A program made the translations under genes and the position numbers. DNA of 12,257 nucleotides from Terriglobia bacterium (GTDB lineage: Bacteria; Acidobacteriota; Terriglobia; Bryobacterales; Bryobacteraceae), in contig JAENWC010000392.1 in the NCBI GenBank assembly GCA_016650235.1, positions 1-12,257 on the forward strand, given 5' to 3'. A model generated the notes under the pieces. It searched no databases. It was not told the DNA's origin and saw only the letters and a list, made by a program, of their open reading frames with translations. Of the stretch, positions 1,320 to 9,901 are shown in pieces; the stretch's first letter is position 1, and each line of letters opens with the position of its first letter.

Positions 1320-1811
1320 ATGAAGGCACTGGCCGCGCCCATGCCTCTGCTCACATACAAAGACGCCCGGCCGTGGGCCAAGGCCGTCAACTCCAAGTTC
1401 GTGATTCCACCCGGGGCCGGCGCGCATGAGGTAAAGTCCACCATCACGCTGCGCGCGGATGCGAAGCTCATCAATCTGATGCCGCACATGCATCTGCGCG
1501 GCAAGGATTTCCTGTATCGAGCCACTTACCCCACCGGGGAAACCGAAACCCTGCTCAGCGTCCCGCGCTATGACTTCAACTGGCAGCTTTATTACTATGT
1601 CGACGGCGAGAAGCTGCTGCCCAAGAACACGCGTCTGGATTGCACGGCGCACTTTGACAACTCGGCCAACAACAAGGACAACCCGGACGCCTCCAAAGAG
1701 GTCCGTTGGGGCGACCAAAGCTGGGAGGAGATGATGATTGGCTGGTTTGACGTGGCCATCGACGCCAAGATGGAACCATCGGCTTTGTTGCGCCAGCCAA
1801 AATCAGAATAA
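1320..1811 (+). CDS. Truncated paralog of the upstream gene: ~20-aa cytochrome-domain fragment joined directly to the CuM half-domain; probable gene remnant
   Basis: GAGGAG sits 7 nt upstream of ATG 1320 (the last codons of ORF1). LLTYKDARPWAKAV matches ORF1 aa 43-56 (FFTYKETRPWAKAM). The sequence then jumps to NSKFVIPPGAGAH...PHMHLRGK...DFNWQ...FDNSANNK...EVRWGDQSWEEMMIG, which matches ORF1 aa ~280-400. There is no signal peptide, no CxxCH and no HH site. Confidence 0.5.
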   Translation: MKALAAPMPLLTYKDARPWAKAVNSKFVIPPGAGAHEVKSTITLRADAKLINLMPHMHLRGKDFLYRATYPTGETETLLSVPRYDFNWQLYYYVDGEKLLPKNTRLDCTAHFDNSANNKDNPDASKEVRWGDQSWEEMMIGWFDVAIDAKMEPSALLRQPKSE

Positions 1812-1822
1812 GGGCAATGGGG

Positions 1823-2485
1823 ATGAAGTTTGCCGCAGTTTGCGCCCTATGCGCCTTCTGCATTATTCCGGCCCGCGCGCACGAGACCATCTCGACCAAA
1901 CTCACCTGGACCCGCGAAATCTCGCGCATCCTGTATAAGCATTGCGGATCATGCCACAAGGAAGGCGGGCCGTCCTTTTCGCTGATGAGTTATGAAGAGG
2001 CGCGCCCGTGGGCGAAGGCTATCAAGGAAGAGGTTCTCGAACGGCGCATGCCTCCCTGGAGCGCGGTGAAAGGATTCGGCGAGTTTGCCCATGATGAGGC
2101 GCTGTCGATGGAAGATCTCCATCTGATCTCCGATTGGGTGGAGGGCGGGGCTCCGCAAGGCGATCCGAAGTATCTGCCGGACGCGCCCCGATACAAGGAT
2201 GCGCCGAAGCCCCGGCTGATACAGGGGCGCGTGGTGAGTGGTGAATACAAGCTGCGATCCGCGATGAGGGTTCGCGCGGTGCGTCCCGAAGGGCTGGCCG
2301 AGGGCGGGTGGCTGAAGGCGATCGCGGTGCTGCCGGACGGCCGGGTGGAGCCGCTCCTTTGGATCTACAACTATCAGCAGAAGTGGCCACGGAACTACAC
2401 CTTTCAGGACGCGATCGCGCTTCCGGCGGGCGCGGCGGTGCAGGTGGCACCGGCGGGAGCCAAGCTGGTTTTGTCATCACGGTAG
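1823..2485 (+). CDS. Secreted c-type cytochrome domain (CGSCH) followed by a degenerate, 3'-truncated CuH-like segment lacking His ligands; paralog of ORF1
   Basis: AAGGG lies 8 nt upstream of ATG 1823; the in-frame ATG at 1817 is also possible. The signal peptide is MKFAAVCALCAFCIIPARA|HE. CGSCH and YEEARPWAKAIKEEVLERRMPPW, plus LISDWVEGGA, align with the ORF1 N-domain. The C-terminal part (VRPEGLAEGGWLKAIAVLPDGRVEPLLWIYNY) aligns with ORF1 [31 protein letters not shown], but HH is replaced by LW. The ORF stops at TAG 2483-2485, only 2 nt from the convergent gene. Confidence 0.6.
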   Translation: MKFAAVCALCAFCIIPARAHETISTKLTWTREISRILYKHCGSCHKEGGPSFSLMSYEEARPWAKAIKEEVLERRMPPWSAVKGFGEFAHDEALSMEDLHLISDWVEGGAPQGDPKYLPDAPRYKDAPKPRLIQGRVVSGEYKLRSAMRVRAVRPEGLAEGGWLKAIAVLPDGRVEPLLWIYNYQQKWPRNYTFQDAIALPAGAAVQVAPAGAKLVLSSR

Positions 2486-2487
2486 TC

Positions 2488-3111
2488 TCAATTGGCCGGA
2501 ACGGGCGGGTTGGCTTCGTTTTGACGGCGTTGTGAGGCGAGGCTGAATGCGGCCGCTTCGGCTTCAAATTGGGATACGGAGTAATCGATAGTTGCGTTTG
2601 TGGCGAATTGGCTTCGTTTCGCCATTTTGTCGATGGGGACCAGCGGGGATATGTTTTCCGCGTTGAGATGGTTCGCGTTTTCCAGGACATAGCGGTCGGA
2701 CTGAAGAACGCGGAGTTCGCGCAGGGCGCGATAGTAGGACTTCTCGGCGCGTGCGAAGTAGCGGGCGTAACGGTCGCATTGGGAGGCGAGGCCCGAGTCG
2801 GAGAGCGGGTCGATGCCGGATTCGGCGATCTGGGCTTCGAGGCGGCGTATGCGTCGCATGTTCCAGGCGGCGTGGAGCAGGTTGTCGAACGCGGTGAGTT
2901 CGAGCTGGCCATTGGGTTTGATTTGTCCGGTGAGTGAGATCTGGAAATCGAGGAAGTCGTCCTGTTCGTGGGGAAGGATGACGAGGTCCTTGGATGTGAG
3001 GCCGTGGGTGCGTGCGTTTTGCGCGGAAGCTGCTTTGCCTTCCTGGGTGCATGGGCCAGTGGAGAGTTGGGCGTTGGCGCGATTGGCTTCGATTTGCGGT
3101 AGTGAAGACAT
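2488..3111 (-). CDS. Hypothetical protein, 207 aa, no family recognised
   Basis: ATG is at 3111..3109, preceded by AAAAGGAG 7 nt upstream (plus strand ctcctttt at 3121-3128). The composition is normal with a central predicted helical region. The overlapping longer minus ORFs are Pro/Arg/Ser-rich low-complexity frames. Codon usage (CTC, CAA, AAA; C- and A-ending codons) differs from neighbouring genes. Confidence 0.6.
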   Translation of the reverse strand: MSSLPQIEANRANAQLSTGPCTQEGKAASAQNARTHGLTSKDLVILPHEQDDFLDFQISLTGQIKPNGQLELTAFDNLLHAAWNMRRIRRLEAQIAESGIDPLSDSGLASQCDRYARYFARAEKSYYRALRELRVLQSDRYVLENANHLNAENISPLVPIDKMAKRSQFATNATIDYSVSQFEAEAAAFSLASQRRQNEANPPVPAN

Positions 3112-3593: not shown

Positions 3594-5621
3594 TTACCGA
3601 TTCTCTGCGGCAGGGCCCGACGCCGCCAAGGGATGCCCAACGTCTTTCCCGGTGAGCAATTGAGCAAGGAACGCAGAAAAGATACCACTGCTGCCGTCGG
3701 CTGCACCCGCGCCGACCAGAATGTCCGGGGTAATCTTGAGTCCGGCTGCGGCAATGGATTTCGCGACTTCGATTGCAGTCAGGTTTAACTGTCCAACTGC
3801 GGCGACCTGTTTCTGGAAGGCTTCCGCGGTCGCGCTTCCCACAGCGAGAACCTTTTTCCCTGAGGCTTGTCCCAGCATCTCGATGGCGCGGGCTTCGCCC
3901 TCGGCCCGGATAATGGTCTGTTGCCGGGTCTGTTCAGCTATTTGGACGCCGACCTGAGCGGCAACCAGATCGGGCTGCTTGTCGGCTGTAGCTCGTGTAT
4001 TGTCGGTCGCAATCCTTTTCTCTTCCGCTCTCTGCTGCTCCACATACATCTCTTGCTGTTGCGTTGCAATGACCCGTTTCGTTTGGATCTCCATCAAATT
4101 TTGTGGAAGAACGATCTGGGAAATGAGTACCGAGACGATCTCGACATGGTACTTTTCGAGCTCGGTGCGAGCCTGCTTTTCTATCTTGTGCTGTTCCAGG
4201 GTGCGGTCTTGCATGAATCGCATCGCCTCGGTCGAGGAGGCCTGATTGCGGAAGCACGAGTCAATCATCGGGTGGACAACGTGCTCAACCAGATTATGGA
4301 GCGATCCGATTTTAGAGACCATCAAGGGAGCCTGGTCGGGCCGAATCCGAATGATGACTTTCACGCTCACCTGCATTTCAAAACCATCACGGCTGATCAC
4401 CGTAAGCTCGTCGAACACCTGGGGTAACGCGCTTAGTCCGCTCTTGCTTAGCGTGACACCAGCAACTTCTTCGCCTCCGCCTTGTTCCGCCCAATCGATC
4501 GTAATGTTGGTCGTCGGGATGATGTAGGGGATATAAGCCCAGCGGTTAAGATAATAGGCACCCGGTCCGGCCACCTCGACCTGGATACCCCGGCAACCGG
4601 CCGGAACCACGTACCGCTCCTGACCGGAGCGCAGTCTATCCTCCGTGGTGAGCCAGTCCGGTTCGCCGCCTACGTTTGACACGAGTACGGCGACCTCTCC
4701 TCGGTTGACAACCATCACCTCATCTAGCTTCACATTGAACATCAACGGGTTGACATAATAGGTTCCGGGCTTCAGTAGATCAAACTGAGGCCCGCGCAGC
4801 CCCCTGCTAGCCAGAAAGGCCGGGGCGTCCTGAAAATCATTGTGATGCTCCACATGTGGAGCCACCAAGTCACCCGATGGCAAAGGTTGGCCGTCATTCG
4901 CCGTCACCAGACCAACTTGATTCGCCTCAATGACGGTTGCTTCCTTTACCTCTATTTGGAACAGGTCGGTATTGATCCGATACCGCCCGGGAAGAATGAC
5001 CTCGATCTGCGGGCCACGCTGGCCGCCATTCTTGAGAAAAGTCTCTCCGTCCTGGAATGAATTATGTCCCTCCGCTTTCTGAGCGAGCAGGCGGCCGGCC
5101 TGTATCACACTTCCATCCCGAGCGCTCGCGACGCCGACATGGCCTGGAGGAATGGTTGTTACCGGCACCAGTCGCACGTGGAACAAGTATGAGTTAATCC
5201 GGTACTTGCCAGGTGGAAGAACATCTACCTGGGGTCCCTTTTGGCCTCCATTGTGAAGGAAGGCTTCGCCATCCTGGAAGTTGCCGTGGCTGGCGACGTG
5301 GCGTGCGAAGATCTGGCCCGGCTGGAGGGGCAGACCATCAATGGACTCGACGAGTCCAACTTGCTCGTCTTGTACGACAATCATCTCCTCTCGCGACACT
5401 TTGTAGAGGAAGGGAGGCAGTACGTAAAGCCCGGGTTTTAGTGATCTCGCTTGAAACCCAATCTCTCCCCGCATGGCGACAACTCGCGCTTCCGGTAGCG
5501 AACGGCCTAGGTAACGGCGTTCTCTGATCCCAACCTCCGACCCTCTGACGCTAACCAGCATCCTCCCGCCAAACACAAGCAGTACCACCACTACTGCCAG
5601 AACGATCAGTTCCACATTCAT
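3594..5621 (-). CDS. Flotillin-like SPFH/Band 7 family protein with an N-terminal TM anchor, 4-5 tandem ~75-85-aa repeats, an SPFH core and a flotillin C-terminal helical region
   Basis: The start was re-called at the internal ATG 5621..5619 (MNVELIVLAVVVVLLVFGG, a TM helix) because AAGGAG sits 8 nt upstream; the longest-ORF start at 5660 has no RBS. Repeats share ...QVGLV..DG.PL..G..VA.HV..H..FQDxxxFLxNGGQxGPQxxVLPPGxYRINxxLFxV. The SPFH core is VISRDGFEMQVSVKVIIRI...EQQRAEEKRIA...IRAEGEARAIEML. The C-terminal tail contains KITPDILVGAG. Confidence 0.85.
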   Translation of the reverse strand: MNVELIVLAVVVVLLVFGGRMLVSVRGSEVGIRERRYLGRSLPEARVVAMRGEIGFQARSLKPGLYVLPPFLYKVSREEMIVVQDEQVGLVESIDGLPLQPGQIFARHVASHGNFQDGEAFLHNGGQKGPQVDVLPPGKYRINSYLFHVRLVPVTTIPPGHVGVASARDGSVIQAGRLLAQKAEGHNSFQDGETFLKNGGQRGPQIEVILPGRYRINTDLFQIEVKEATVIEANQVGLVTANDGQPLPSGDLVAPHVEHHNDFQDAPAFLASRGLRGPQFDLLKPGTYYVNPLMFNVKLDEVMVVNRGEVAVLVSNVGGEPDWLTTEDRLRSGQERYVVPAGCRGIQVEVAGPGAYYLNRWAYIPYIIPTTNITIDWAEQGGGEEVAGVTLSKSGLSALPQVFDELTVISRDGFEMQVSVKVIIRIRPDQAPLMVSKIGSLHNLVEHVVHPMIDSCFRNQASSTEAMRFMQDRTLEQHKIEKQARTELEKYHVEIVSVLISQIVLPQNLMEIQTKRVIATQQQEMYVEQQRAEEKRIATDNTRATADKQPDLVAAQVGVQIAEQTRQQTIIRAEGEARAIEMLGQASGKKVLAVGSATAEAFQKQVAAVGQLNLTAIEVAKSIAAAGLKITPDILVGAGAADGSSGIFSAFLAQLLTGKDVGHPLAASGPAAENR

Positions 5622-5629
5622 TGTGATTT

Positions 5630-5635
5630 CTCCTT
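5630..5635 (-). promoter_or_regulatory. Shine-Dalgarno AAGGAG for the flotillin gene (8-nt spacer to ATG 5621)
   Basis: The plus strand reads ctcctt at 5630-5635, which is AAGGAG on the minus strand. The context is GCAAAGGAGAAATCACAATG. Confidence 0.6.
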
Positions 5636-5676
5636 TGCTCGCCGATGATAGGCGCGCCATACTACGATTTCCGGTT

Positions 5677-6297
5677 TCATGCCTTCTTCGCGAACTCGCT
5701 GCGGTGGCGGCTGTAAAACAGGTAGATCAACAGTCCGAGCACCAACCAGACGACGAAACGCACCCAGGTGATGACCGCAAGTCCCATCATCAGACCGCCG
5801 CAGAGTGCGGTGGAGATCAGAGGGAACCACGGCACCAGAGGCACTTCAAACAAGCGCGGACGGTCGGGCTGGGTGCGGCGCAGGACGATCACGCCGAGCG
5901 AGACGAGCACGAATGCGAAGAGCGTGCCGATGTTGGAAAGGTCGCCGGCGTCGCTGATGGCAAATATTCCTCCGGGAATGCCAACAGCAAAGCCGGCGAT
6001 CCAGGTGGACAAATGTGGCGTCCTGAACTTGGGATGAATGGCGGAAAAGAACTTGGGGAAGAGATCATCGCGCGACATGGCGTGCCAGATGAGAGCCTGG
6101 CCGTATTGGAAGACCAGCAGTGAGGAGATCATTCCCGTGAGGGCGCCGATCCCCAGCGCGGCCAGCGACCATGGGTCGAGTGTCTTTTGCAGCCTGTGTC
6201 CCGGGGCCTCGGACCCGGAGATCAGCTTGTCGATGGATTTGCGGGAGAAAAGCTGATTCCAGAAGCTATGATTCTCCGATGTGTGGATCACTTTCAT
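5677..6297 (-). pseudogene. APC-superfamily (cationic amino-acid transporter-like) permease remnant: N-terminal ~55 aa fused in frame to C-terminal ~150 aa, central core missing
   Basis: The N-terminus FSRKSIDKL...LQKTLDPWSLAALGIGALTG matches the cytoplasmic N-tail and TM1 GxG motif of APC/CAT permeases. It continues directly into ISSLLVFQYGQALIWHAMSRDDLFPKFFSAIHPKFRTP...FEVPLVPWFPLIS...TWVRFVVWLVLGLLIYLFY, the characteristic last 3-4 TMs. Overall length is 206 aa, where an intact permease would have about 450. The RBS is intact (AAAGAGGAA 6 nt upstream of ATG 6297). Confidence 0.5.
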
Positions 6298-6458: not shown

Positions 6459-7031
6459 ATGGCCCAGCCCGGAGACGTTACGAGCCTGTTGGCTGAAATT
6501 CATCGCGGAAACCGCCGCGCTGAGTCGGAGCTGATCCCATTGATTTACGACGAGTTGCACCGCCTTGCCGCATACTACATGCGGCGCGAGAGATCCGACC
6601 ATACGTTGCAGGCAACCGCCCTAGTGCATGAGGTTTACCTGCGGCTTTCGAAGCAGCGCGAAGTGACCTGGCAGAACAAGGCCCACTTCTTTGCGATTGC
6701 CGGAAGCTTGATGCGCCGCATTCTCGTGGATCATGCTCGTGCGCATAGCCGAAGCAAGCGCGGAGGCTTACAGCAGAAGATCTCCCTAGAGGAAGCGCTG
6801 CTCTTCTCAGAAGAGCAATCCGAAGAGCTAATGCTATTGGACACGGCACTGGCTCAACTCACTGAAGAGCACCCCCGGCAGAGTCAGATCGTGGAACTGC
6901 GGTTTTTCGGAGGGCTCACCGTGGAGGAAATCGCGGAGGTTTTGAAGGTTTCGCCCAAAACGGTAAAGCGCGACTGGAGCGTAGCTCGTGCTTGGCTTTA
7001 TCGCGAAATCCACAAACAGGAAGCTGGATGA
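6459..7031 (+). CDS. ECF-subfamily RNA polymerase sigma factor (sigma-70 regions 2 and 4)
   Basis: MAQPGDVTSLLAEI...LIPLIYDELHRLAAYYMRRERSDHTLQATALVHEVYLRL is region 2. ELRFFGGLTVEEIAEVLKVSPKTVKRDWSVARAWL is the region 4 HTH. The 190-aa length is typical. The track ORF beginning at 6171 overlaps the divergent gene and is not used. An alternative in-frame start exists at 6408. Confidence 0.9.
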   Translation: MAQPGDVTSLLAEIHRGNRRAESELIPLIYDELHRLAAYYMRRERSDHTLQATALVHEVYLRLSKQREVTWQNKAHFFAIAGSLMRRILVDHARAHSRSKRGGLQQKISLEEALLFSEEQSEELMLLDTALAQLTEEHPRQSQIVELRFFGGLTVEEIAEVLKVSPKTVKRDWSVARAWLYREIHKQEAG

Positions 7032-9901
7032 CGCCGGAAGGGCGAGAGAGGATCTCCGAACTATTCGAGGCGGCGCTCGAGCGAGAACCGAACGAGCGAG
7101 ACGAGTTCCTCGAGGAAAGTTGCAGCGATGAGGAGATTCGGACTGAAGTCAAGTCATTACTCGCCGAACACGAGAAGGCGGGAAATTTCATGAAAGAACC
7201 GGTGCTCGCATCGGAGCGTGCACTGTTTGCATCGGCCCAGTCCTTGGCACATCCCGCAATTGGCGAGGTTGCTTACCGCCAGCTCAGCGAGCGATACGAG
7301 ATCCTGGCTGAGGTTGGCCGCGGCGGAATGGCTATCGTCTATAAAGCCCGCGACCGCATCACTGGCGAAATTGTGGCCCTTAAGATTTTGAAACCGGAGG
7401 TGGCCTCCGACCAGGTCGCCATGGAGCGGTTTAAGAACGAACTACGTCTAGCCCGCAAGATAACGCACAAGAACGTGTGCCGCATCCACGAATTCAGTCT
7501 GATTGACGGTACGGCATACATTTCGATGGAGTTTGTCGAAGGGGAAAGCTTGCGCGAGATCTTGAGGCGTTTTGGCGGGCTGTCTCTTCGCAAGGGAATC
7601 GAAGTTGCTCTCCAGATTTGCGACGGACTTCAGGAAGCCCATAGCCAGAAAGTAGTCCACCGCGACCTCAAGCCGGGAAATATCATGATCGATCGATCGG
7701 GACACGCTAAAGTCATGGATTTTGGCATCGCTCGCTCCGTGGAGACAGGCGTTAACACTGGAACCGCAGTCATCGGGACACCAGCCTATATGGCTCCGGA
7801 ACAAGCACAGGGTAAGAACATCGATGATCGAACCGACATTTATTCCCTGGGACTAATTCTTTACGAAATCTTTACCGGGAAACCGGCTTTCACCGGTGAC
7901 ACCCCAGTTTCAGTTGCCCTCAAGCAAATCAACGAAATACCGCGCTGTCCTCGTGAGCTCGAACCCACGATTCCTCTCCAGATCGAGAAGGTAATTCTCC
8001 GATGCGTGGAGAAGGACCCAGCCAACCGCTATCAAACCTTGAGCGAATGGAAATCGTCATGGACCAAAGAATCTGCTGTAATCTCACCCGTCCTCCCCAG
8101 CCTTGTTCTGCATAAGAGGTGGCTGATTTACCTGGTCCTGGCCTCGTTGGCCCTGGTCGCCGCCATCACTGGCATTGTCGTCTGGAACCTGAAGCCCTCC
8201 GTAGCAGGCCAGCCGTCTGTGGCGCGCATTACGGTGGATCTTCCGCCGGGTGAACGGCTGGCCGGGTTGGGGCTGTCCGCTCTCACCGTTTCTCCGAAAG
8301 GCAGCGAACTCGCATATGTCGCTAAACGAAACGGTATCCAGCAACTCTTCCGTCGGGCACTCGATAGTCAAGAAAGTAAACCCGTCTCTGGCACGGAAGG
8401 TGCACTCAGCCCCTTCTACTCACCAGACGGTCAATCATTGGGTTTTTGTGCAGATGGAAAGCTGAAAACAGTCGCAGTTAACGGGGGTGCCCCAGTGGTA
8501 TTGGCGCCTGTGTTCTCTGGTTGTGGGGGAAGTTGGGGGAATGCCGGCCAAATCATTTTTTCTCCGAGTTGGACAGCCGGACTTATGCAAGTTTCGGCTC
8601 TGGGTGGCATGCCGAAAGCCCTCACAGCGCTTGATCGAGAACGGGGTGAAGGAGGCCACCGCTTTCCTCACCATTTGCCGGGTGGCAGGGCATTGCTTTT
8701 CACCGTCGGGACGGGTGGCAGTTGGGATGACGCGCGGATTGAAGTGCTACGGCCCGATACCGGCCAGAGAAAACTCCTGATTAATGGGGGTAGTGATGCC
8801 CGTTACGTCCACACAGGTCACATCGTTTTTGTGCGAGGGGCGACTCTTTTGGCGGTGCCGTTTGATCTGGCGCGGTTGGAGGTTACGGGTCCCCCAATGC
8901 AAATCCTCGAGGGGGTTATGCCCTCAGTTGATAAAACGGGAGCGGCACAGTTTGGTTTTTCCAATGCTGGTTGGTTGGTGTACGCACCAGGGAATTTACA
9001 CGCAGAGGAACGGCAACTCGTTTGGGTGGATCGTTCAGGCGCGGAACAAGCATTCCCGCTGCCGCCCCGTCCTTACACTGATATTAAACTCTCTCCGGAC
9101 GGCCACCGTCTGGCTCTAAGTATTGATGAAGGAAACAAGGCGGATATTTGGCTATACGAGGTTTCTCGCGCCGTACTCACGAGGCAATCATTTGCCGCCA
9201 CTAATAGTGCTTCTACTTGGACTCCAGACGGGAAGAAGATAGCGTATTATTCCGACAGAGACGGGCAATGGAATCTCTATTGGAGTGCAGCCGATGGGAG
9301 CGGGGTTGAAGAGCGGCTCACGTCAAGCGAATCCCCCCAAATTCCCTGGTCGTGGTCCCCGGATGGTCAGCTCCTGGCCTATTCAGAAAGTCACCCAACC
9401 ACAGGGATCGATATTTCGGTGCTATCTCTCAGAGATGGCCGGAAGGCACAACCTTTCCTTCGGACTCCGTTCAACGAAGATGCACCCGTGTTTTCGCCCG
9501 ATGGTCGCTGGCTTGCCTATCAATCCAATGAGTCCGGCCGCAATGAAGTTTACGTGCAGCCCTATCCCGGCCCCGGCGGGAAGTGGATGATTTCATCAGA
9601 AGGGGGAGTGAAGCCGCTGTGGGCATCGGATGGGCGGGAGCTGTTTTACCGTAATGGCGACAAGATGATGGTGGTTAAAGTGGCGACTCGGCCTGAATTT
9701 CGTGCTGCGAAACCGGAGATGCTTTTTGAGGGAGACTATAAGGATGATCCAACAGGCCCGCAGTACGACGTGACGCCCACTGGAAGGCGGTTCGTAATGA
9801 TGAAAGAAAGTGACCTCGTAGCCGCCGCTACAAAACTCAACGTCGTCCTGAACTGGTTCGAAGAGGTGAAACGGAAAGTGCCGGCGAAATATCCGAGATG
9901 A
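7028..9901 (+). CDS. Hanks-type Ser/Thr protein kinase with an ECF-associated N-terminal motif, one TM helix and a C-terminal TolB-like (PD40/WD40-like) beta-propeller
   Basis: ATG 7028 overlaps the sigma stop (ATGA) and AGGAAG lies 4 nt upstream. The N-terminus is RISELFEAALEREPNERDEFLEESCSDEEIRTEVKSLLAEHE. Kinase motifs are GRGGMAIVYKA, VALKIL, HRDLKPGNIM, DFGIAR and GTPAYMAPE. The TM helix is WLIYLVLASLALVAAITGIVVW. The periplasmic region has repeated SPDG/TPDG motifs (YSPDGQSL, LSPDGHRLA, WTPDGKKIAY, WSPDGQLLAY, FSPDGRWLAY). Confidence 0.9.
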   Translation: MTPEGRERISELFEAALEREPNERDEFLEESCSDEEIRTEVKSLLAEHEKAGNFMKEPVLASERALFASAQSLAHPAIGEVAYRQLSERYEILAEVGRGGMAIVYKARDRITGEIVALKILKPEVASDQVAMERFKNELRLARKITHKNVCRIHEFSLIDGTAYISMEFVEGESLREILRRFGGLSLRKGIEVALQICDGLQEAHSQKVVHRDLKPGNIMIDRSGHAKVMDFGIARSVETGVNTGTAVIGTPAYMAPEQAQGKNIDDRTDIYSLGLILYEIFTGKPAFTGDTPVSVALKQINEIPRCPRELEPTIPLQIEKVILRCVEKDPANRYQTLSEWKSSWTKESAVISPVLPSLVLHKRWLIYLVLASLALVAAITGIVVWNLKPSVAGQPSVARITVDLPPGERLAGLGLSALTVSPKGSELAYVAKRNGIQQLFRRALDSQESKPVSGTEGALSPFYSPDGQSLGFCADGKLKTVAVNGGAPVVLAPVFSGCGGSWGNAGQIIFSPSWTAGLMQVSALGGMPKALTALDRERGEGGHRFPHHLPGGRALLFTVGTGGSWDDARIEVLRPDTGQRKLLINGGSDARYVHTGHIVFVRGATLLAVPFDLARLEVTGPPMQILEGVMPSVDKTGAAQFGFSNAGWLVYAPGNLHAEERQLVWVDRSGAEQAFPLPPRPYTDIKLSPDGHRLALSIDEGNKADIWLYEVSRAVLTRQSFAATNSASTWTPDGKKIAYYSDRDGQWNLYWSAADGSGVEERLTSSESPQIPWSWSPDGQLLAYSESHPTTGIDISVLSLRDGRKAQPFLRTPFNEDAPVFSPDGRWLAYQSNESGRNEVYVQPYPGPGGKWMISSEGGVKPLWASDGRELFYRNGDKMMVVKVATRPEFRAAKPEMLFEGDYKDDPTGPQYDVTPTGRRFVMMKESDLVAAATKLNVVLNWFEEVKRKVPAKYPR

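Follow-up and report, generated by a model that had tools for sequence, protein, structure and literature searches.

A probable mosaic gene remnant in a conserved operon of exported cytochrome c and PHM-like proteins in Terriglobia

The window analyzed here, the entire 12,257-nt contig JAENWC010000392.1 of an Acidobacteriia/Terriglobia metagenome-assembled genome (MAG; assembly GCA_016650235.1), begins with three plus-strand open reading frames (ORFs): ORF1 (coordinates 2–1318), ORF2 (1320–1811; 163 aa), and ORF3 (1817 or 1823 to 2485; 222 or 220 aa). Our best overall explanation, to which we assign a probability of about 0.68, is that ORF2 is a recent, non-functional remnant with a mosaic composition, found only once, and that ORF1 and ORF3 on either side of it are intact. 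A first-pass annotation made from the sequence alone had read ORF2 and ORF3 as decayed tandem copies of ORF1 in different stages of domain loss. Its description of ORF2 stands, and ORF2 is indeed an internal-deletion-type derivative of a full-length family member, but it was mistaken about the domain retained in ORF3 and about its premature end, and the proposed duplication series does not hold; of the two supposed decayed copies, only ORF2 is truly decayed. The protein records are MBK5294101.1 (JJE04_20790) for ORF2 and MBK5294102.1 (JJE04_20795) for ORF3. Homology searches returned the identical 163-aa record for ORF2 (P0001) and ORF3 in the form starting at 1823 (P0121, 220 aa), and exact-sequence look-ups of ORF2 and of ORF3 from the 1817 start gave no match.

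Operon context and composition of ORF2

The window opens inside a conserved A-(B)-C operon of the Bryobacterales/Terriglobia, which encodes exported proteins that combine a cytochrome c domain with a fold like that of PHM and dopamine beta-hydroxylase (DBH), the smaller partner C being the last. Conserved arrays in this group contain one to three genes of ~430–460 aa followed by a gene of ~220 aa, which is ORF3 in the window. A neighbor-joining (NJ) tree of 135 CuM domains, one of the two copper domains (CuH and CuM) of the longer proteins, has four clades: B (position −1), A, D2 (usually position −2), and D1/3. ORF1, which runs off the left contig end and is missing ~3–4 codons, falls in the A clade, and ORF2 falls in the D2 clade beside L025_1344 and L061_1613 (L and P numbers are our handles for loci and proteins, respectively).

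Comparison of syntenic loci, as advised in the first-pass annotation, was informative: C is conserved, and each of the five closest relatives by C identity (L001, 80%; L168, 74%; L169, 71%; L003, 70%; L171, 69%) has a B-type gene directly before C, i.e. in the slot held by ORF2. An A gene lies upstream of B in L001, L003, and L171; the contigs of L168 and L169 stop within B. Where the B gene is complete it is full length (~422–425 aa). We examined 80 genome loci with C, 70 of which had upstream DNA sufficient to judge. A full-length paralog ends next to C in 63 of these 70, three have a frameshift-split neighbor, four have none, and a compact ~160-aa form beside C is present in none of them. 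In the window, the upstream neighbor of C is the ORF2 remnant.

ORF2 consists of two blocks that lie far apart in ORF1. Residues 5–23 (AAPMPLLTYKDARPWAKAV) match ORF1 residues 46–64 within the cytochrome domain (BLASTP, 12/19 identical, E=1e-5), and residues 22–161 align without gaps to ORF1 residues 286–425 in the CuM half (97/140 identical, 69%, E=6e-70). Both matches had been seen in the first pass, although the identity of about 60% given there for the second block is too low. At the DNA level, 1332–1384 is 74% identical to 137–189, and the CuM region is ~67–70% identical. Absent between the two blocks are ~221 residues (the remainder of the cytochrome domain together with the whole of CuH), close to the ~230 aa estimated before, and the first ~45 residues, containing the signal peptide and CxxCH, are absent as well; tBLASTn with full-length relatives found no displaced fragments of the missing parts anywhere in the window. 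ORF2 is thus 163 aa in length as against ~430–460 aa for its homologs, and it has neither a signal peptide, nor a heme site (CxxCH), nor the CuH histidines, whereas the CuM ligands H56, H58, and M138 are kept. The maximum Kyte-Doolittle hydrophobicity of its N-terminus (10-aa windows) is 1.48 compared with 2.2–3.1 in real signal peptides of the family, in agreement with the earlier view that ORF2 has no signal peptide. Judged by these alignments, ORF2 is almost certainly derived and truncated in nature.

The good ribosome-binding site reported earlier is also present, with a Shine-Dalgarno sequence (GAGGAG, 1306–1311) that lies within the 3′ end of ORF1 and is separated from the ORF2 ATG by 8 nt. 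The ORF1 stop codon (1316–1318) is 1 nt before this ATG, a spacing that suggests translational coupling. The same Shine-Dalgarno and stop/start arrangement precedes the full-length B gene of L001.

By its codon-position divergence and its place in the tree, ORF2 is not a decayed copy of ORF1. The two are 44% identical at third codon positions, 74% at first positions, and 82% at second positions, with a synonymous divergence (dS) of ~1.9, and the low third-position identity, together with membership in different and widely distributed clades (A and D2), indicates that the duplication separating them is ancient. ORF1, ORF3, and the parent of ORF2 belong to ancient paralog clades rather than to a recent duplication series. 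The idea of progressive decay, in which ORF2 and ORF3 are tandem duplicates of ORF1 and ORF3 is ligand-less and cut prematurely, does accommodate the homologous cytochrome segment common to all three and the CuM-domain homology that ORF2 and ORF3 share with ORF1. However, the synonymous sites of ORF1 and ORF2 are saturated and ORF2 lies in another ancient clade, and with the evidence on ORF3 given below we regard this idea as highly improbable. ORF2 does resemble the A gene of the window slightly more than other D2 genes do, but recent gene conversion from ORF1 was rejected, since no stretch of identity exceeds 17 nt and no tract of high identity is present.

Alignment with the individual paralog types resolves ORF2 into a mosaic composed of the start of a B gene, residues ~46–64 of a D2 protein, a D2 CuM domain with its stop codon, and the end of a B gene. 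The first five codons (MKALA; 1320–1334) are orthologous to the start of the B-type gene: these 15 nt and the spacer upstream are identical to, and collinear with, the B start at the A-B junction of L001 (ATGAAGGCACTGGCC is identical in L001), and divergence begins directly afterwards. The cytochrome-domain fragment (1332–1388), corresponding to residues ~46–64 of the full-length protein, has 75–82% nucleotide identity to D2-type genes compared with 68% to the B gene of L001, and it contains the AAPM diagnostic of D-type genes where B-type genes have IGPM. The CuM domain (1389–1811) has its native C-terminus and stop codon (..PKSE*), ending in ..KSE* as D2 genes do, and its amino acid identity is 76.6% to the D2 protein of L025, 71% to that of L088, 69% to the A protein of the window, and 55–59% to the B protein of L001. 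The last part (1812–1822; junction J2) is a remnant of the final codons of a B-type gene plus the spacer to ORF3; the 9 nt that follow the ORF2 stop codon (GGGCAATGG) correspond to GGG CAA TAG in L001 and align with the B-C junctions of L001, L171, and L168. We rejected a simple deletion within the syntenic ortholog because the pieces kept are of the D2 type and not the B type. A foreign origin on grounds of composition was likewise rejected, the GC content at third codon positions (GC3) of ORF2 (0.78) being equal to that of its neighbors (A, 0.78; C, 0.75).

The internal junctions fall at short shared sequences. At J0, the B start and the D2 fragment overlap by the codon GCC. At J1 (1386–1391), the window reads GCC GTC AAC, and the D2 gene of L025 has GCG ATC AAG at the 5′ side and GCC GTC AAC at the 3′ side; in relatives, GCx (A/G)TC AA encodes the motifs on both sides, which are A-[IV]-K at the 5′ side and A-V-N at the 3′ side. 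The similarity of these motifs, which is compatible with microhomology of up to 8 nt, would explain the in-frame outcome. The pairwise protein and DNA alignments proposed in the first pass thus map both blocks, and the microhomology that they were meant to reveal is plausible (GCC at J0, up to 8 nt at J1).

We propose that the ancestral slot held a full-length B-type gene (~424 aa) of which only the first five and the last codons would remain, the interior having been replaced by two non-contiguous, in-frame D2 pieces, i.e. 19 cytochrome-domain codons followed by the whole CuM domain and its stop codon. The rearrangement most likely proceeded via short direct repeats, perhaps by template switching or by gene conversion from a D2 paralog, with microhomology-mediated deletions occurring after this step or together with it, and it would have taken away the signal peptide, the heme site, and the CuH site. 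The mechanism and the recency are those that the junctions and the state of the gene suggest, and the exact order of events is put forward with low confidence. With neither export, nor heme, nor the electron-transfer copper, the product would be incapable of PHM-type chemistry; it would still be translatable through the inherited operon coupling signals.

A variant of the real-remnant explanation, and one that tells against the replacement scenario just described, begins with an ancestral A-D2-B-C tandem that suffered three deletions here (two in D2 and one removing nearly all of B), with the relatives losing D2 independently and L001 doing so when the D2 start became fused in frame to B. Other Bryobacterales arrays most often read D2-B-C, the MKALA start common to ORF2 and the B gene of L001 could be a D2 start, and the end of B comes directly after D2's own stop codon. 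However, arrays with an A-clade gene are ordered A-C or A-B-C and none has a D2 gene, and at least five events are required compared with one to three for replacement by an ectopic paralog. We therefore regard this variant as possible but unlikely.

ORF3 and the C family

ORF3 (1823–2485; 220 aa with the NCBI start, the ATG at 1823, or 222 aa from 1817) is, with near certainty, an intact and full-length member of the conserved C family. It has a signal peptide, a His at the predicted mature N-terminus, a CxxCH cytochrome c domain, and a beta domain of ~90 aa. The first two modules that the first-pass annotation named, the signal peptide and the CxxCH domain, are both present, and ORF1 and ORF3 have homologous cytochrome domains (BLAST E=4e-30; hhalign E=1.9e-40). 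The second domain had been taken for CuH with the HH pair replaced, but profile-profile comparison places it on ORF1 residues 288–376, i.e. CuM (E=1.9e-12, probability 97.7%); CuH was rejected, as its E-value of 0.61 is noise. The beta domain is a homolog of the CuM domain that covers only its first two thirds and lacks the copper ligands, which are replaced or absent in ORF3 and throughout the C family, such that it is HxH, and not HH, that has changed.

Nor does ORF3 end prematurely, as 220–222 aa is full length for its own family. A search with ORF3 returned 2692 homologs, and the best 120 of these are 209–259 aa in length with ~90–100% query coverage; ORF3 also has all 31 invariant columns of a 38-sequence alignment of the C family. 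The ratio of nonsynonymous to synonymous divergence (omega) of ORF3 is 0.12–0.20 against the L001 ortholog (80% amino acid identity) and 0.146 against L003, and by domain it is 0.16–0.24 for the cytochrome and 0.165 for the beta domain. The dS values of A (0.59–0.96) and C (0.70–1.03) agree, which fits with both flanks being orthologous.

From the C-family homologs, the invariant columns, the omega values, and the fixed position, it follows that the ligand-less, half-CuM architecture is old and family-wide, and that the domain loss that made it took place long ago in the family and not at this locus. The decaying-duplicate model is already refuted for ORF3, which is full length for a family of more than 2600 proteins with a fixed operon position and omega ~0.15, and whose second domain maps to CuM rather than CuH. 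What was found is instead a conserved stand-alone family under purifying selection in both domains (omega 0.12–0.24), the very observation that the first-pass annotation had named as contradicting its duplication series. Its alternative suggestion, that a short copy had been repurposed as a standalone cytochrome, is essentially right for ORF3, whose family is large, stands alone, and is constant in length.

The C family comprises uncharacterized, exported monoheme cytochrome c proteins of ~220 aa in the Acidobacteriota. ORF3 resembles the other members in length, invariant residues, operon position, and purifying selection, and no feature sets it apart from them. The names given at NCBI are 'cytochrome c' or 'hypothetical protein', and a literature search found no experimental characterization of the family. 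ORF3 presumably serves the upstream enzymes as a partner in redox reactions or metal handling. For annotation, ORF3 (MBK5294102.1) is to be treated as a bona fide conserved gene and not as a pseudogene.

We also noted that a His directly follows the predicted signal-peptidase site (AxA|H) in all 38 aligned members of the C family (His20 of the 220-aa form of ORF3; 1877–1882), so the mature protein would begin with His; the only other invariant His is that of CxxCH. The N-terminal His is reminiscent of histidine-brace-like copper sites with an N-terminal His, in a region where the model is of low confidence.

State and uniqueness of ORF2

ORF2 is probably non-functional, and its rearrangement is probably real rather than technical, each with moderate confidence. 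A search of 5.8 billion proteins found none that is more than 71% identical to ORF2 and none with the same junctions, with the same outcome in a metagenome scan and in an exhaustive search of 1.84 billion representatives. As the ORF2 search had returned only proteins of less than 285 aa, we asked whether a stand-alone CuM-only family exists, and rejected it because the short homologs checked are split genes: P0027, P0034, and P0014, all from long-read contigs, are broken by frameshifts, and P0003 by a scaffold gap of 80 N. This check covered these four look-alikes on long contigs; the 1.84-billion search listed other representatives of 145–200 aa.

The nearest parallel is P0463 (JGI Ga0376077_0005065, Logan SRR11829739), a 224-aa product of an independent in-frame internal deletion that removes CuH, so that the CuM region (PHTHLRGK...) directly follows a signal peptide and a complete cytochrome domain. 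In contrast to ORF2, P0463 keeps the signal peptide and CxxCH but lacks ~25 residues at the start of its CuM domain, and it stands alone and not in an array. It is present on two separately assembled contigs (L174, 4001–4675; L175, 150–824), whereas ORF2 was seen once, and its occurrence on two contigs indicates that deletions of this kind arise naturally in the superfamily.

A second internally deleted gene lies outside the operon in the window. It codes for an APC/BcaP-type amino-acid permease (5677–6297, minus strand) of 206 aa from which ~255 internal residues have been deleted in frame. Residues 16–56 match residues 3–43 of GkApcT (5OQT) and residues 42–203 match 300–461, only positions 305–459 of the 460 in the NCBIfam BcaP profile are matched, and the deletion junction lies within similar motifs (LGIGA..G and SLGAIAG).

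ORF2 resembles bacterial gene remnants formed by short-repeat deletion or by template switching between paralogs, in being shorter than every homolog, a singleton, and without essential modules, and in having junctions at short shared sequences and a second internally deleted gene nearby. It differs from them in that it has no frameshifts, stops, or rate acceleration and all of its junctions are in frame, and its two paralog types make it a mosaic, not the product of a plain deletion in place.

Several observations weigh against a remnant, or against a natural one. The reading frame of ORF2 has no stops and no frameshifts, which counts against a pseudogene, although a very recent event would also fit. 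Every junction preserves the frame, and the CuM ligands, the family motifs, and the Shine-Dalgarno sequence and coupling are intact, as in a selected mini-protein, and the 3′ piece begins almost exactly at the domain boundary. The microhomologies are derived from relatives that are ~70% identical and are not the true parents, and the donor D2 gene was not seen in the single contig covered. Lastly, the four deletion-type junctions (three in ORF2 and one in the permease gene) are unusually dense for 12 kb and could be technical. Among 28 columns with at least 98% conservation, one is changed in ORF2 (Gly to Asn in LPKG), a level of change also found in 7% of functional members, and Tajima relative-rate tests of ORF2 against its D2 sisters are non-significant. 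This lack of decay implies either that the rearrangement is recent, or that it is an artefact, or that the domain is still selected.

Were it an artefact, chimeric amplification reads or template jumping at low coverage, arising in the library or the assembly, would have made both ORF2 and the short permease gene, and the real slot would hold a full-length gene. The presence of four deletion-type junctions on one 12-kb MAG contig is in keeping with this, as are the lack of mutational decay in ORF2 and its not having been seen a second time in the databases searched. However, the positions joined at the junctions are non-homologous, with no more than ~3–8 nt in common, whereas De Bruijn assemblers require exact overlaps of k≥21; the reading frame is kept at every junction of the patchwork; the D2 pieces and the flanking genes are alike in GC3; and the comparable P0463 form is found in two independent assemblies. 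An artefact is therefore quite unlikely.

If the domain is still selected, ORF2 would be a functional mini-protein, a stand-alone CuM-type copper-binding domain that is coupled to ORF1, is cytoplasmic or poorly exported, and could act, for example, as a copper buffer, a chaperone, or a regulatory subunit. The in-frame junctions, the intact HxH...M ligands and family motifs, the preserved Shine-Dalgarno and stop/start coupling, and the absence of rate acceleration are all as expected of such a protein, and the domain boundary at which the deletion ends is also used by the conserved C family. Yet no ortholog or analog of the architecture is present in the databases searched, the short homologs checked are split genes, a 19-aa cytochrome helix fragment is retained with no evident role, and the near-invariant Gly of LPKG has become Asn. 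Moreover, PHM-type catalysis needs CuH and an electron donor, neither of which is present, and the family is otherwise always exported. We consider a functional mini-protein very unlikely, and less likely still that a single multi-template-switch event placed two stretches of a distant paralog in frame in the slot and so made a coupled, ligand-intact, CuM-only mini-protein that was kept, e.g. for ORF1/ORF3 copper handling. If that were true, ORF2 would capture in progress the route by which the C family arose long ago and, independently, P0463.

With ORF2 read as a real but non-functional remnant, its record (MBK5294101.1) should be treated in annotation as a probable remnant and not as a new protein family. 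It provides a modest illustration of microhomology-mediated domain shuffling within arrays of tandem paralogs.

The cytochrome and PHM-like family and the neighboring genes

PHM and DBH are copper type II ascorbate-dependent monooxygenases (Pfam PF01082/PF03712). ORF1, which is 90% identical in amino acid sequence to the A gene product of L001, has a signal peptide, a CxxCH cytochrome c domain, a CuH domain (H179, H180, H254), and a CuM domain (H320, H322, M402). These six residues, corresponding to the CuH and CuM ligand sets, are invariant columns in alignments of 31 and 41 sequences, and the first ~110 residues of the family make up the CxxCH cytochrome domain with an invariant MPPW. The AlphaFold model of ORF1 (pLDDT 82.7) matches PHM in Foldseek over ~290–318 alignment columns (E 6e-14 to 1e-10; TM-score to the target 0.54–0.69) and also matches DBH, with E-values of ~1e-13 to 1PHM, 1SDW, and 4ZEL and a TM-score to the target of ~0.66 for PHM and DBH.

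At the sequence level the family has only sub-threshold matches in Pfam and NCBIfam. The Cu2_monoox_C scores of 17.2 bits (ORF1) and 13 bits (ORF2) are both below the cut-off of 23, the Pfam model of the Cu2_monoox N-terminal domain matches neither ORF1 nor ORF2, and a search of PDB sequences with a family profile gave no PHM or DBH chain at E≤1. Likewise, the putative class I c-type cytochrome domains of ORF1 and ORF3 score 16.6 and 19.1 bits with Cytochrome_CBB3 (cut-off 27), although CxxCH, the invariant M-P-P-W, and the signal peptides are present. On the strength of the predicted fold and the ligands, ORF1 and the parent of ORF2 should be called PHM-like, and not members of the Pfam family.

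The likeness to PHM and DBH lies in the two-beta-sandwich fold of ORF1 and in the ligand pattern HH...H (CuH) and HxH...M (CuM), invariant across the ORF1 family. In contrast to PHM and DBH, the proteins are bacterial and exported with a fused N-terminal c-type cytochrome domain, the presumed electron donor is heme rather than ascorbate, and the sequence similarity is under the Pfam and PDB-profile thresholds; ORF2 furthermore has no CuH at all, and ORF3 has neither the copper ligands nor the last third of the domain. The cytochrome domain has weak matches to PccH (PDB 4RLR) and to hydrazine synthase alpha (5C2V), with E-values of 0.03–0.05 over only ~40 residues, and these justify no functional inference.

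The full-length family is large, with at least 8000 proteins of ~430–450 aa returned and a CuM-type domain present in 6098 clusters at 50% identity. NCBI often names the ~430–450-aa proteins (P0241–P0360) 'thiol-disulfide isomerase', a mislabelling, or else 'cytochrome c'. Longer relatives (600–1250 aa, e.g. P0361) bear redoxin-like N-terminal modules, which probably explain the former name. A literature search found no paper on a bacterial family joining cytochrome c to a PHM/DBH-like fold, and this family of more than 8000 proteins appears to be uncharacterized. The fusion of a c-type cytochrome to a PHM/DBH-like two-copper fold, traveling with a ligand-less partner, merits experiments more than the ORF2 remnant does.

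The remaining genes of the contig look intact and code for an SPFH protein, a TIGR02999 extracytoplasmic function (ECF) sigma factor, a Ser/Thr kinase with a beta-propeller, and a sulfatase. Scans for Rfam families, tRNAs, promoters, and terminators gave nothing relevant, and a Pfam scan of small ORFs in the unannotated stretches gave no match. Downstream of ORF3 on the minus strand (2488–3111) is a 207-aa ORF with no Pfam or NCBIfam match but with a weak homolog (31% over 147 aa) near the L001 operon (4044–4484), and it is probably a real conserved hypothetical gene. The SPFH/Band 7 protein (3594–5660, minus strand; 688 aa) has three tandem repeats of ~95 aa N-terminal to the Band 7 domain, with the pattern H-[GN]-[NSD]-FQD..FL..GG.[KR]GPQ...PG.Y.[IV]N. 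The TIGR02999-type ECF sigma factor gene (6459–7031, plus strand) overlaps by ~40 nt the start of the Ser/Thr kinase gene (6992–9901, plus strand), which codes for 969 aa with a TolB-like beta-propeller; the true start of the sigma factor, listed as an ORF of 286 aa, is probably internal, near residue 97. Among the loci compared, L008 (VFZE01000019.1) is the same Lake Tanganyika contig as L003 and has an Acidobacteriota-type A-B-C operon, but it is deposited in a MAG labelled Acidimicrobiia, a label that may reflect a binning or taxonomy error.

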